A stretch of 64,000 nt of DNA. It comes from Marine Group II euryarchaeote MED-G37 (GTDB taxonomy: Archaea; Thermoplasmatota; Poseidoniia; Poseidoniales; Thalassarchaeaceae). Both the position numbers and the translations under genes were made by a program. Location of the stretch: NCBI GenBank assembly GCA_002457555.1, contig NTJQ01000003.1, forward strand, positions 43,754-107,753, read 5' to 3'. Positions 7,086-18,623 of the stretch are shown piece after piece; positions within the stretch are counted from its first letter, which is position 1, and every line of letters starts with the position of its first letter. The notes below the pieces were generated by a model. The model made no database searches. It saw only the letters and a program-made list of their open reading frames with translations, and had not been told where the DNA came from.

Positions 7086-8141
7086 TCAATTACTTACTCT
7101 TCTTAGTAACTCTTCGAGGCTTAATTTTGGACAGTAGCGCTGGTGTAAATTAGCGACAGGAATCCAGATTAGTGTATGTGCAAATGTGACAATAAAAGCC
7201 TCGGGAACAGATAAAAGTGGTTTATTCATCATGTATTCTGCAGCAACCCCGAGAATCGCAAAGTGAAGGACGTAGATGGTCAAAGTTAGGCGTCCAGAAG
7301 CTTCTAACACACTCAAATCAATTAGTCTATTCTTGGAATTTCGCAGGAGTAATTCGTTTGCAATAAGAACGAACATTGCAGTTATGAAAATGAAGAATGT
7401 TGTTGCGGGGAAGAATGTCAAAATCGCATCACCTTCGGTTAGTGCCCAAACCTTTCCTGAAGTAAATGACAGCCCTATACTAACCAAAAATATAATTCCA
7501 CCTATTGCCATTATGTTCTTTCTAGTTTCAAAATCATTTTCAGATTCTGCAATTATTGCGCCTAAAGTCGAAAACGCTAACCACGGAAAAACAGGGTACG
7601 TTCCATTGACTAAGAGCCGGTGACTCCATTCTCCAATCCCCGTAGAATCAACCCTTGAGGCCCAAGATGATTCAGAACCATTGTATTCTCCAAGAAGTAG
7701 TGGAGTTAGCGCTAGTAACGAAAAAATTGCAACTAATTGCTTACTAGTAAATCGAGAAATTACGGGGGCGAAAACAGCAGCGATTGCAATTAGGGTTAGA
7801 ACACCTGGAGTGTGCCATTCAAATCTCCCACCTCGGTCAATAGCAAGTAGAAAATTGACAAGAAATTGACAAGCAGTTAGAATTACTACTCGTGGTAAAA
7901 CCCAATTTATCCAAGCGGTGGAATTTAGGCCATTGGCAAATCTTTTCTTAGCCCCACGATGCATTCCCCAACCTGAAACAGTAACGAATAGTGGAGCGGC
8001 CATGCCTCCAAATGCAGCAGCAACGAATGCGGCGGGATGGCCAACAGTGATTCCTTCAGGAGGCAAAATTGCTGCTGTGTGAACTTCGACCATGAAGAGA
8101 ATTGCAACCGCTTTCATTTGATCGATATAACCTAATCTCAT
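7086..8141 (-). CDS. Multi-pass membrane protein, HGSNAT-catalytic/DUF1624 acyltransferase-like family
   Basis: N-terminal RLGYIDQMKAVAILFMVEVH, AAPLFVTVSG, YPVFPWLAF, GRLTLTIYVLH; about 10 hydrophobic segments. Start ATG 8141 chosen because GGGTGA (RBS) overlaps the upstream stop. Confidence 0.7.
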   Translation of the reverse strand: MRLGYIDQMKAVAILFMVEVHTAAILPPEGITVGHPAAFVAAAFGGMAAPLFVTVSGWGMHRGAKKRFANGLNSTAWINWVLPRVVILTACQFLVNFLLAIDRGGRFEWHTPGVLTLIAIAAVFAPVISRFTSKQLVAIFSLLALTPLLLGEYNGSESSWASRVDSTGIGEWSHRLLVNGTYPVFPWLAFSTLGAIIAESENDFETRKNIMAIGGIIFLVSIGLSFTSGKVWALTEGDAILTFFPATTFFIFITAMFVLIANELLLRNSKNRLIDLSVLEASGRLTLTIYVLHFAILGVAAEYMMNKPLLSVPEAFIVTFAHTLIWIPVANLHQRYCPKLSLEELLRRVSN

Positions 8142-8145
8142 GCAC

Positions 8146-9423
8146 TCACCCAATAATCTGAGAAATTCGAGATTCTACACTTACCTGCTCTATCGAGACC
8201 GAAAAAGCAGAGGATATTTTCTCCGACAAACCATCAGGCAATTCCTTGCGATGATAAATTACAATCAATGGGTCACCAATCTCGACTTCATCACCAACTT
8301 GGGCTTCTATAATCGCCCCGACAGCATGGTCTACGCTGTCTGTCAGAGTTTTCCTACCTGAGCCCAATTCGAGACAGGCGAGTGCAATTGACATCGCATC
8401 AATATCCTTAATCCATCCTTTTTTCTCAATGTAAATCTCGGTTGAAAATAAATCATCTTCTAGTAGGCCCAGTGAACTTAGCATAGCGTGGTCGCTTGCA
8501 AAGTCATCACGATTACCTCCTTGAGATTCGACCATATCTAGGAATTTTGTGAAAGCGCTACCATCATTCAAAGAATTATGAATCATTAATGCGCCTTCTT
8601 CCATGTTTTCGACAATCCCCGATGAAGCCAATAAAATCCCTGCCTGAACACAAACCAGTTCTTCAAGGTCATGCGGCCCACGACCACAGAGAGTTTCAAC
8701 AGATTCAACTATTTCGAGCGCATTTCCTACTGCGCAGCCTAATGGTTGATCCATGGTTGAAAGGACTACAGAAGTAGCAATACCCATCCCATTCGCTGCA
8801 TCTACCATCGATTGGGATAGCGCTTCGGCTTGTTCTCTTTCGGCCATGAATGCGGCTCTTCCATATTTTACGTCTAGAACCAAAGCCGAAAGTCCCTCAG
8901 CGGCCTTTTTCGATACGATTGAGGAGGTGATTAGTGGAATAGAAGCAACAGTACCTGTTACATCGCGGAGCGCGTACATGCGCCTATCGGCGGGAACTAG
9001 TGACTCCGTTTGTCCAACCATTGCAAATCCAATTTCTGCAACTTGTTTTTGAAGTTCATCTATGGATAGATCAACGCGGAAACCTGCTATACTTTCCAGT
9101 TTATCCAAAGTACCTCCAGTGTGCCCTAGGCCTCGCCCGGAAATCATCGGCACTTTGAGTCCACAAGCGGCCAGAGCGGGAGCTAAAACGATAGAGACCT
9201 TATCTCCAACCCCACCCGTTGAGTGCTTGTCAACAACTAGATGGCTCCAATCTTTTGGCCACGCCAAAACCTTTCCTGAATCCCTCATTGTTTTGGTAAG
9301 AAAGATTGTTGAGTTTTCATCGAGTCCGTTTTTGAATACATTTCGCAACCAATCGATGACCTGTTCATCACTAAGTGAACCATCGACAACTCCATTTACA
9401 ATATCAGCGATTAAATCGCTCAT
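8146..9423 (-). CDS. deoA: Thymidine / pyrimidine-nucleoside phosphorylase
   Basis: VDKHSTGGVGDK, MISGRGLGHTGGTLDKLESI, YALRDVTGTV, SIVSKK, LVLDVKYG. No N-terminal extension of archaeal AMP phosphorylase. Start overlaps the upstream stop (ATGA). Confidence 0.92.
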   Translation of the reverse strand: MSDLIADIVNGVVDGSLSDEQVIDWLRNVFKNGLDENSTIFLTKTMRDSGKVLAWPKDWSHLVVDKHSTGGVGDKVSIVLAPALAACGLKVPMISGRGLGHTGGTLDKLESIAGFRVDLSIDELQKQVAEIGFAMVGQTESLVPADRRMYALRDVTGTVASIPLITSSIVSKKAAEGLSALVLDVKYGRAAFMAEREQAEALSQSMVDAANGMGIATSVVLSTMDQPLGCAVGNALEIVESVETLCGRGPHDLEELVCVQAGILLASSGIVENMEEGALMIHNSLNDGSAFTKFLDMVESQGGNRDDFASDHAMLSSLGLLEDDLFSTEIYIEKKGWIKDIDAMSIALACLELGSGRKTLTDSVDHAVGAIIEAQVGDEVEIGDPLIVIYHRKELPDGLSEKISSAFSVSIEQVSVESRISQIIG

Positions 9424-17060: not shown

Positions 17061-17069
17061 CTAAACACC

Positions 17070-18623
17070 TCATCTGATATCTATACAGAATTGCATTGTA
17101 TTATCGACAGAATCTTCGGTGGTTGATAATCTGCCTGTCCAATCAAGAGGTCCCTGCCCCTCAGTTTGGCTAGACTCAGTGCCGTCTCCTAGTAAACAGA
17201 CACTTTCGTCTGAACCGGATCTCTGAATCCACTGGTTACCATCCTCGTCCATAATTGCCTCCCCGTTAATAACCACAAGTTTTCCAATATCCCATTTCCA
17301 TGAATTGTAACCATCTCCCCAGTTTAGAGTAGTTGGTGCTGGTGCTTGACCGAGAGTCCAAGAACGAGCTTCAAGAATCACTCGCCCCTCGCTTTCTGAC
17401 CAAATTATTGTAGCATTGAAGCGGATTGATTGACCACCCTCAATATATTCTGCGTGCTCACCGATTAGATGTATTCTGAGTTTGGTTTGCCTAGAGAAGT
17501 AATCTGCACCGTCTCCAACATATCCTTTGTCATAATCTGGAGATATAGGGTCTGTAATCCATCCTTCAAATGTATGATTCTGATTTAGATAATCAAATGG
17601 ATTCTCAGCAACATCGAGTAGTGGCGTTACATCATCTCCAAAGTTGCCAGCAGCATTTTCGGCTGAGTATCCGTCAAGCCTTAGACAAATGGTTGCTTCA
17701 TCCGTAGACCAAATTAATCGTCCAAACCATTTTTGTTCAACACCCTCTAATCCCTCATCTACAACATCCTCTGAAGGCAATAAACAAAGTCGGTCTGTAG
17801 GTGAATTTCCAATTAACCACCAGCTACCTGATGATTGAGTTGATGTTCCATCTATTGATACGTTCTTACCAACTTCATAGGTCAACGTGTAGGGTTCTAA
17901 TTCCCAAGATAAGTCAACAACCGATCCTTCGTTAAGAACTTCTATGGCAGTTGCTTGCACAAGTAACCTCCAACGTAGAGAACGTTGGTCATATTGTAAC
18001 CAACCAGATATTTCCACATGACTTCCGGCTTCAATCCAATCTATTACTCGCCCCTCCACTTGCATATACAATAAATGGTCTGCGTTACCATAAGAGGGGT
18101 TATCCATAAGACTCAATGAATGATATGTTACATCAGGCTCAAGAGGTTCGGACAAATAGCCGTCTACTTTTACAGACATGTTGGCAAATTCTTGAGGATT
18201 CATTGCAACTTCGACTAATTGCATAGCGGTATATTCTACGGAGTCGCAATCCGAATCAGCACATTCTATAGCGCCGTATCCATTGGATGACAACCAAATC
18301 CGACCGTTCCATTCAGTCACTTCTCCTTCGACAGTAATTATCGTTCCAATTGGAGGGATATTGTTATCTCTGTCTACAAACCATCGAACTTCGACTACTG
18401 AGTGGCCATCAACTTCTCGAACTTGCAAATCTATCCTGTCTGCCTGTTCACCGTAAGGGTCTACAACGAAACTGGTCAGCACCCCTTTGACCTTGACGGT
18501 CTCTCTTGGATATTCGTGAATTTCATCTATGTCGATAAAATCCGGCTCACGGATTACCGCGTAGAAATTCATTGTTGATACTAGCAAAAGAGATGTGAAG
18601 AACATCACCCAGAGCTTCGCCAT
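17070..18623 (-). CDS. N-terminally membrane-anchored multi-OB-fold protein
   Basis: One N-terminal TM, then repeated OB-like units (e.g. ETVKVKGV...GTIITVEGEVTEWNGRIWL; NMSVKVDGY...GSHVEISGWL). ATG 18623 has a TTCAAG box at -29. Confidence 0.6.
   Translation of the reverse strand: MAKLWVMFFTSLLLVSTMNFYAVIREPDFIDIDEIHEYPRETVKVKGVLTSFVVDPYGEQADRIDLQVREVDGHSVVEVRWFVDRDNNIPPIGTIITVEGEVTEWNGRIWLSSNGYGAIECADSDCDSVEYTAMQLVEVAMNPQEFANMSVKVDGYLSEPLEPDVTYHSLSLMDNPSYGNADHLLYMQVEGRVIDWIEAGSHVEISGWLQYDQRSLRWRLLVQATAIEVLNEGSVVDLSWELEPYTLTYEVGKNVSIDGTSTQSSGSWWLIGNSPTDRLCLLPSEDVVDEGLEGVEQKWFGRLIWSTDEATICLRLDGYSAENAAGNFGDDVTPLLDVAENPFDYLNQNHTFEGWITDPISPDYDKGYVGDGADYFSRQTKLRIHLIGEHAEYIEGGQSIRFNATIIWSESEGRVILEARSWTLGQAPAPTTLNWGDGYNSWKWDIGKLVVINGEAIMDEDGNQWIQRSGSDESVCLLGDGTESSQTEGQGPLDWTGRLSTTEDSVDNTMQFCIDIR

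Follow-up and report, generated by a model that had tools for sequence, protein, structure and literature searches.

A conserved four-gene unit that probably acts on nucleic acid, and an independent CD36-family gene lodged within it, in a Marine Group IIb archaeon

Do six adjacent, co-oriented genes of a marine archaeon form one system, or has the genome set side by side genes with separate histories? The question is raised by a stretch of 64,000 nucleotides (the window, as we call its whole length) from the Marine Group II euryarchaeote MED-G37 (assembly GCA_002457555.1, contig NTJQ01000003.1, positions 43,754 to 107,753 of the forward strand), which the source names on near-identical proteins and contigs place in Marine Group IIb, as Candidatus Thalassarchaeum of the Thalassarchaeaceae. 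The source genome is 79% complete, a figure that bounds the absences reported for it below. Positions 7086-18659 of the window are filled by six minus-strand open reading frames (ORFs), encoding in order of transcription an OB-fold anchor protein, a TctA-like permease, a CD36-like protein, an LTD-PLD phosphodiesterase, a thymidine phosphorylase (TP) and a membrane acyltransferase. An earlier note on this DNA proposed that the six together make up a surface cassette akin to an external lysosome. The uninterrupted run, its spacings and the domain calls behind that proposal were borne out by the ORF listing and by Pfam/NCBIfam searches, and a hydropathy scan agrees that five of the six products are membrane-bound, with one N-terminal helix in the OB protein, terminal helices at both ends of the CD36-like and PLD proteins, many hydrophobic segments in the TctA-like protein and the acyltransferase, and a phosphorylase that looks soluble. 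The run is very probably composite rather than one system, and the best explanation overall, in which we have some confidence, is a four-gene unit for DNA capture, cutting, import and salvage, accompanied by an independent CD36-family gene and by an acyltransferase of the local genomic backbone.

Gene order in related genomes separates the six genes. Of 24 relatives in the same genus, 15 have all six together on one contig and in this order, and the other nine loci, cut by contig ends, show no conflicting order; at this range the unity of the six holds only trivially. Across the order Poseidoniales, the OB, TctA, PLD and TP genes are linked in all three sampled families, the OB gene lying directly upstream of the TctA gene in every locus compared. 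Thirteen of 14 genomes of family f3 carry OB, TctA, PLD, BaxI, a 2-oxoglutarate oxygenase and TP on one contig (with an esterase downstream at one locus), and genome G027 of family f2 has the order OB, TctA, thiolase, PLD, TP. In both of these families the CD36-like gene stands alone among housekeeping genes, which in f3 are not conserved and offer no functional clue, and the acyltransferase lies elsewhere. Scattering in related genomes, which would speak against the cassette of the earlier note, is therefore seen for two of its six genes, whereas the other four stay linked.

The same division is found within the Thalassarchaeaceae, where 66 loci were gathered around the CD36-like gene (9-row alignment). 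All six genes are present in 25 of these, another 14 are fragments that contig ends have truncated but that agree with the full run, 23 hold the CD36-like and acyltransferase genes only, side by side, two have OB-TctA-CD36 with no PLD gene following, and two are uninformative; in four genomes of the CD36-acyltransferase-only kind OB, TctA, PLD and TP were not found anywhere. A search of 101 genomes of the family (E thresholds of 1e-30 for TctA, 1e-50 for TP, 1e-60 for PLD, 1e-40 for CD36 and 1e-25 for the acyltransferase) found TctA, PLD and TP all present in 63, all missing from 30 and mixed in eight, the mixed genomes being 60-90% complete. Pairwise agreement among these three genes ranges from 94 to 97 of the 101 genomes, TP agreeing with TctA in 96 and with PLD in 97. 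Agreement with TctA is found in 53 of 101 genomes for CD36, at a threshold that undercounts divergent copies (e.g. in genus g8), and in 48 for the acyltransferase. Among the 30 genomes without TctA, PLD and TP, the CD36-like gene is kept in 29, as is the acyltransferase. The OB gene, which lay outside this search, was co-absent in four of five genomes searched separately, and the Pfam TctA model gave no match in any of the five module-less genomes tested (85-94% complete). The reverse arrangement also occurs: genera g7 and g15 carry OB-TctA-PLD-TP-acyltransferase with no CD36-like gene in the run (locus L082), and when five genomes that retain the unit were tested, the family profile picked up an unlinked CD36-like gene in one and none in the other four.

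The most telling result is a comparison of the genomic backbone around the unit. Its order is conserved as SHMT, M60 peptidase, acyltransferase, a TP-PLD block, the CD36-like gene, a TctA-OB block and the genes w18997 and w20028; in genomes G048, G051 and G065 both blocks are missing and the CD36-like gene between them stays, leaving two separate gaps. Genus g18 has the unit dispersed over three contigs or loci (OB-TctA-CD36, PLD-acyltransferase, and TP), and there the dispersed TctA, PLD and TP genes are together present or together missing. In a tree of the CD36-like protein (FastTree, 65 rows; ORFs shorter than 780 residues were excluded and several long branches were flagged), passage between the module-adjacent and the CD36-acyltransferase-only states takes at least four changes, three of which well-supported branches make unavoidable, and the unit is present in the basal Thalassarchaeaceae clades. 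The simplest history starts from an old four-gene unit, into the middle of which the CD36-like gene was transposed in part of the Thalassarchaeaceae, and continues with several losses of both halves of the unit. By their phyletic pattern the CD36-like and acyltransferase genes are independent of the unit.

The first gene of the unit (17070-18659, minus strand, as are all six) encodes an OB-anchor protein of 529 amino acids, with a probable start at the in-frame ATG at 18623, which is the start of most of its homologues. Pfam recognises it only below threshold (PF01336, 18.8 bits against a cut-off of 27). An AlphaFold model built with 18 homologues (predicted local distance difference test, pLDDT, 78.9) shows five beta-barrel units and a helix at residues 10-36. 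Foldseek matches it best to nucleic-acid binders with tandem OB folds, p204 HIN-200 (E 1.1e-10) standing ahead of S1, RPA and TEBP; these matches speak for the fold rather than for the ligand. The TctA-like permease (15405-17060, 551 amino acids), separated from the OB gene by 9 nucleotides, is a member of its family (PF01970, 134.3 bits against 28.9). Its usual partners TctB (PF07331) and TctC (PF03401) were not found in the source genome by searches that gave matches in control genomes.

The pairing of these two genes extends well beyond the order. Of 151 Thermoplasmatota genomes, 130 have TctA-like genes, and at nine of 18 distant loci the OB-family profile matches the same-strand ORF directly upstream. 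These upstream ORFs are typically of about 200 amino acids, with one helix and two OB folds; the Pfam OB model scores above its cut-off at two of the loci, and start and stop codons of the two genes often overlap. In one distant genome the TctA-like gene has as its divergent neighbour a gene for an LTD-containing protein of 524 residues (L127:2679-4253). The earlier note had also suggested complex prediction for the OB/TctA pair, and this gave support of a weak kind, the TctA-like protein with OB residues 10-445 scoring 0.36 against 0.00 for the best of three controls, with contacts agreeing to at least 68% between runs and a partner pLDDT of at least 69. The mark applied to such scores is reached by 116 of 157 solved complexes and by two of 215 mismatched pairs, but scores that pass at or below 0.60 comprise only 18 of the 157 and both of the passing mismatches, and are more often wrong than right unless the pairing is likely beforehand.

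The third member, an LTD-PLD surface-anchored phosphodiesterase (9420-12467, 1015 amino acids), has a signal/anchor helix, two domains each of the LTD and PLDc_2 types, a region rich in Asp, a C-terminal transmembrane helix at residues 902-920 and a cytoplasmic tail. Both of its HxK(x)4D motifs (HSKVAVRD at residue 491 and HNKGAIID at residue 696) are intact and are invariant across 12 relatives. Searched as a whole protein against the PDB it returns weak matches only; a profile of the catalytic region is more informative, and finds as its top solved chains Nuc (1byr, 3.6e-16), Zucchini (4ggj, 2.9e-14) and NucT (6ehi, 5e-13), with PssA, PLD3 and PLD1 ranking far lower. The analogy with lysosomal PLD3/4, on which the external-lysosome proposal had drawn, is not upheld by this order of relatives. 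Look-ups of protein clusters returned only Thermoplasmatota clusters for the OB protein and generic PLDc_2 clusters, and did not separate nuclease from lipase. The size of the PLD protein varies, being about 1015-1070 residues, or about 1526-1594 with extra LTD repeats, within the genus and about 1630-1665 in f3.

The last gene of the unit (8146-9423, 425 amino acids), which overlaps the PLD gene by 4 nucleotides, encodes a cytoplasmic pyrimidine-nucleoside (thymidine) phosphorylase, identified by TIGR02644 (456.7 bits, where 409 suffices) and NF004490 (455.4, where 269 suffices). With the model for archaeal AMP phosphorylase it scores 190.8, far under the cut-off of 535. That TP shares the fate of the unit, kept with it or lost with it even in genomes where they are not linked, points to salvage or feeding as one of the unit's purposes.

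An experimental precedent for the first two genes comes from methanogens. In Methanococcus maripaludis, complemented in-frame deletions show that MMJJ_13020, whose product has an OB fold and a single transmembrane helix, and its neighbour MMJJ_13030, whose TctA-like product has 11 helices, are each essential for natural transformation (PMC10133366). A TctA homologue is likewise essential in Methanoculleus thermophilus, a secreted thermonuclease was also found in the M. maripaludis screen, and the TctA-like protein is proposed by the authors as the missing archaeal DNA transporter (PMC10133366). Precedents for the nuclease part lie in bacteria, where the membrane-associated nuclease ExeM combines LTD, OB-like and nuclease regions (PMC6085458) and the 'DNA-degradation loci' of Candidatus Izemoplasmatales encode one protein of the same LTD, OB-like and nuclease make-up (PMC8289736).

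Taken together, the parts indicate that the four-gene unit probably acts on nucleic acid. As to substrate, direction of transport and purpose (nutrition or salvage over genetic exchange), we infer the following scheme. The OB anchor would use its five extracellular OB folds to keep DNA at the membrane; the surface-anchored LTD-PLD enzyme, of the Nuc/NucT/Zucchini type, would cut or degrade it; the TctA-like permease, acting together with the OB anchor, would carry DNA or pieces of it into the cell; and the cytoplasmic phosphorylase would salvage pyrimidine deoxynucleosides released inside the cell. The capture, hydrolysis and salvage of nucleic acid envisaged in the earlier note thus find support for the OB, TctA-like, LTD-PLD and TP genes, which are linked across the order and kept or lost together and of which the OB-TctA pair has its genetic counterpart in methanogens (PMC10133366), and find none for the CD36-like and acyltransferase genes.

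Several observations weigh against this scheme. The OB ectodomain is strongly acidic (89 Asp and Glu against 32 Lys and Arg), which is atypical of a DNA binder, and the score of the predicted TctA/OB complex falls in the weak range. The substrates known for the TctA family are small carboxylates, and Pfam describes it as a carboxylate-carrier family. The likeness to the Methanococcus pair is one of architecture and of Pfam family alone (PF01970, with PF01336 weak here). Fourth among the matches of the PLD catalytic profile, and nearly equal to NucT, is a chain named 'Phospholipase' (7e0m, 5.8e-13), and the Nuc/Zucchini branch also contains lipid-active enzymes. Neither the C domain of a UshA-type 5'-nucleotidase (PF02872) nor a bacterial-type DeoC (TIGR00126) was found in the 79%-complete genome, where non-orthologous enzymes may serve instead, and the steps that lead from nuclease products to the phosphorylase are therefore unaccounted for. 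At the distant Thermoplasmatota loci no PLD or TP gene lies near the OB-TctA pair. The genomes compared are related metagenome-assembled genomes (MAGs), so that the counts of joint presence and absence suggest more independence than there is, and gaps in assembly may explain some absences. Lastly, the RNA libraries described below may contain carried-over DNA.

These observations bear unequally on the other explanations of the locus. Least credible, and in our view very improbable, is that all six genes constitute one 'external lysosome' that captures, hydrolyses and salvages lipid and nucleic-acid particles. Adjacency and common orientation here and in 15 of 24 relatives, the 25 complete loci among 66, and RNA-library contigs that bridge the CD36/PLD spacer would all be expected of it, but the phyletic pattern largely refutes it: the CD36-like and acyltransferase genes are unlinked to the others in f2 and f3, each outlives TctA, PLD and TP in 29 of 30 genomes, g7 and g15 have runs that do without the CD36-like gene (as do, by the profile, four of five such genomes altogether), and the presence of CD36 agrees with that of TctA in just over half of the 101 genomes. 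Unlikely, though less so, is that the four genes act on lipids or other phosphodiesters, the PLD protein being a surface phospholipase that strips vesicles and detritus of head groups or phosphate, the TctA-like protein importing an organic anion and TP being a bystander. The PLD superfamily does include phospholipases, among them the 7e0m match, and the carboxylate-carrier description of TctA, the acidity of the OB ectodomain, the thiolase inside the f2 unit and the esterase downstream of one f3 locus could all be accommodated. Against a lipid substrate stand the nucleases that are the best solved relatives of the PLD protein, the association of LTD and OB-like regions with nucleases, the requirement for OB and TctA-like genes in methanogen DNA uptake, and the fate of TP, which in genus g18 is kept or lost with the unit even though unlinked to it.

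Two further explanations differ in how much of the unit they hold to be functional. The unit might be a machine for natural transformation, serving exchange or repair as in Methanococcus rather than nutrition, with the linkage of TP meaningless; the nearly phylum-wide spread of OB-TctA (TctA-like genes in 130 of 151 genomes), the distant Thermoplasmatota pairs standing among housekeeping neighbours, would suit such a role. We consider this improbable, as TP is linked in all three families and co-lost with the unit, a gene with an HD domain (dNTPase-like) lies divergently beside OB in f2 and f3, and a large surface nuclease with repeated LTDs suits bulk degradation. Alternatively, OB and TctA alone may be a functional pair, PLD and TP being historical neighbours whose joint losses reflect streamlining in a few related lineages. 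This is consistent with the lack of PLD and TP beside the pair outside the Poseidoniales, with the kinship of the genomes, among which independent losses may be few (at least three to four), and with the small size of the module-less genomes (1.2-1.7 Mb). Streamlining accounts poorly for two separate gaps that flank a retained gene in one backbone, for the dispersed g18 loci that are co-present or co-absent, and for four-gene linkage over three families, and we regard a functional role confined to the pair as rather doubtful, more so than either the lipid or the transformation explanation. A four-gene unit acting on DNA, with salvage as part of its purpose, remains the explanation that we prefer.

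The CD36-like gene (12553-15297, 914 amino acids) lies 107 nucleotides from the TctA gene and 85 from the PLD gene, an independent gene lodged within the unit. Pfam CD36 (PF01130) matches it with 30.7 bits against 26.5 over profile positions 54-134 only (80 of 463), and matches all 18 members of its family; a profile of those 18 members finds LIMP-2 at E 8.7e-23 and CD36 at 1.5e-15. The match comes in two pieces, split by an insert of about 440 profile positions that corresponds to a helical region of about 400 residues (roughly 158-570), and hydrophobic segments at residues 7-25 and 882-900 in the hydropathy scan form the transmembrane hairpin. The predicted structure (pLDDT 79.7) superposes on LIMP-2 (4f7b_B) with Z 20.2 and a root-mean-square deviation of 3.6 A over 324 of 393 residues, and on CD36 (5lgd) and bacterial LmcA with Z 20.1 and 10.2. 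The protein is thus a genuine archaeal member of the CD36 family and an independent lodger in the locus, and it probably handles lipids on its own.

This family is small, with 116 representatives at E of 0.001 or below among 1.84 billion proteins. A 45%-identical relative is encoded on a compact, prokaryote-style contig, one homologue carries the NCBI name 'CD36 family protein', and further CD36-like relatives with the split layout are named Promethearchaeota and Candidatus Hermodarchaeota by NCBI. No paper on the CD36 family in archaea (Marine Group II, Poseidoniales, Thermoplasmatota or Asgard) was found among the matches listed from the literature searched, which describes the family only from eukaryotes; the likeness of LmcA to CD36 is published (PMC8972800). 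Among the side observations on this family are P0386, P0387, P0220, P0233 and L133:6890-9019, CD36-family proteins with a split N- and C-terminal layout and a large insert, some of them in Asgard-named MAGs; P0220 and P0233 have strong Pfam CD36 scores (E 7e-73 and 5e-83), and L133 is a compact, prokaryote-style contig. Genus g10 has two CD36-like genes back to back on opposite strands, unlinked to the unit (G072:C3:24523-29087; G049:C65; G082:C83).

The acyltransferase (7086-8153, 355 amino acids) is part of the local genomic backbone, outside the unit. It is separated from TP by a gap of 4 nucleotides if it starts at the ATG at 8141, or overlaps it by 8 if it starts at the TTG at 8153, and it stays beside the CD36-like gene where PLD and TP are missing. 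Acyl_transf_3 (PF01757, 62.4 bits against 31) outscores HGSNAT_cat (PF07786, 42.8 against 22), so the second leg of the lysosome analogy, the likening of this protein to HGSNAT, is weakened as well. In genus g17 the acyltransferase match contains one in-frame TGA in three genomes (G125:C15:1987-3063, G088:C5:25289-26362 and G116:C51:5125-6201). One edge of the locus is formed by an M60-like peptidase identified by Pfam (3069-7082, plus strand), which is conserved beside the acyltransferase in L076-L079 and L081. At the other edge, upstream of the OB gene, lie a plus-strand tRNA-Met found by ARAGORN (18778-18854) and the plus-strand backbone gene w18997 (18997-19938), whose product of 313 amino acids has an N-terminal hydrophobic stretch and a sub-threshold Pfam match only; w18997 is conserved in L075 and L077-L080 and is 38% identical to an f2 neighbour. 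The HD + HD_assoc_2 gene of f2 and f3, resembling a deoxynucleoside triphosphate triphosphohydrolase (L001:3707-5014, L003:16664-17947 and L004:2275-3672), is not at the OB-adjacent position in the window; the ORF of 412 amino acids at 20028-21266 was considered as its counterpart and rejected, not being the same gene.

Elsewhere in the window a second co-oriented run of six ORFs occupies 23818-42978 on the plus strand, and Pfam identifies several large surface proteins nearby (the M60 peptidase, an ORF of 3178 amino acids containing STT3, a subtilase and a beta-helix protein), so that neither co-orientation nor membrane location is special to the genes discussed here. The ORF of 3178 amino acids (25208-34744) has its STT3 (oligosaccharyltransferase) domain near the N-terminus and a very long remainder, and two others, at 43976-49729 (1917 amino acids) and 21268-23229 (653 amino acids), have no Pfam match at E 0.001.

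Transcription of the run was considered from public data and from the spacers. Seventeen public RNA runs hold parts of the stretch, and contigs of four runs from two studies touch all six genes; the TctA/OB junction is bridged by RNA-library contigs 16669-17164 and 16951-17441 and the CD36/PLD spacer by contig 12289-12640. These are Logan contigs, from which strand, depth, level, transcript ends or a single transcript cannot be read, and gaps in their cover (e.g. most of 15614-16915 and 6934-8235) carry no meaning; three 'joints' were seen in such contigs, each in one contig of one run. The promoter-like boxes that had been placed before the OB, CD36-like and PLD genes, and taken to suggest three transcription units, were not confirmed: the 85-nucleotide spacer between the CD36-like and PLD genes (12468-12552, minus strand) is G+C-rich within an A+T-rich genome, has two short palindromes and has no A+T-rich box. 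To judge from its letters, it could be a processing or attenuation site.

To our knowledge the archaeal DNA transporter has yet to be identified, and the methanogen OB and TctA-like pair is the sole genetic lead to it. On TctA-like proteins and DNA in archaea, the literature searched from 2023 onwards yielded PMC10133366 alone, and among the papers listed none dealt with PLD, TP, LTD, TctA or extracellular DNA in Marine Group II. In the locus described here such a pair stands in a conserved gene run along with a probable surface nuclease and an enzyme of nucleoside salvage; the four genes are jointly inherited and lost, and the OB-TctA pair is spread through the Thermoplasmatota. It is tempting to go further, and we do so tentatively, offering as a possibility rather than an expectation that OB, TctA-like and LTD-PLD proteins are the DNA-import machine of Marine Group II, that the OB-TctA core is that of the Thermoplasmatota, and that the phosphorylase turns the machine into a feeding device. 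If so, the most abundant planktonic archaea would have a way to use dissolved DNA, a large store of phosphorus and nitrogen in organic form, and would possess, assembled from unrelated parts, an archaeal equivalent of ComEA/ComEC/EndA. Both kinds of natural population, those that carry the unit and those that do not, exist and can be compared at sea; the Marine Group IIb lineages that lack both halves (g12, g14 and part of g9 and g18) would then be natural knock-outs. A tempting over-reading is corrected at the same time, in that the CD36-like gene is a real archaeal member of its family and yet no part of the machine.

ComEA/ComEC/EndA, the bacterial competence set, shares with the scheme proposed here a division of labour in which DNA is bound outside the cell, a membrane channel admits it and a nuclease processes it, but there is no homology, the candidate channel here being of the TctA family and the nuclease of the PLD family. 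The TctABC transporter shares the TctA membrane subunit (PF01970) and differs in its partners, TctB and TctC not being found in this 79%-complete genome and an OB anchor being encoded where a partner would be expected. ExeM of Shewanella (PMC6085458) and the Izemoplasmatales loci (PMC8289736) likewise bring together at the cell envelope an LTD, a module that binds nucleic acid and a nuclease, with transporters and nucleoside enzymes as neighbours; in the window the catalytic domain is PLD-type instead of EEP, the OB module is a separate anchored protein and the host is an archaeon. Nuc (1byr), NucT (6ehi) and Zucchini/MitoPLD (4ggj), the best profile matches, have the same HKD chemistry, but are single-HKD, dimerising proteins, whereas the PLD protein here has two HKD motifs in one chain together with two LTDs, an anchor and a tail. 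CD36, LIMP-2 and SR-BI (PF01130), with LmcA (7shw), share the whole ectodomain fold and the hairpin of two terminal transmembrane helices with the CD36-like protein, which differs in the helical insert between the N- and C-terminal parts of the fold and in an identity of about 14%, and whose gene is not tied to its neighbours. The DNA-uptake pair of M. maripaludis has in common with the unit a single-helix OB protein beside a TctA-like permease without TctB or TctC, and a secreted nuclease among its parts (PMC10133366). The OB protein of the window is distinguished by five barrels in 529 amino acids, its LTD-PLD nuclease is encoded in the same run whereas the Methanococcus thermonuclease is encoded elsewhere, and a nucleoside phosphorylase is attached.

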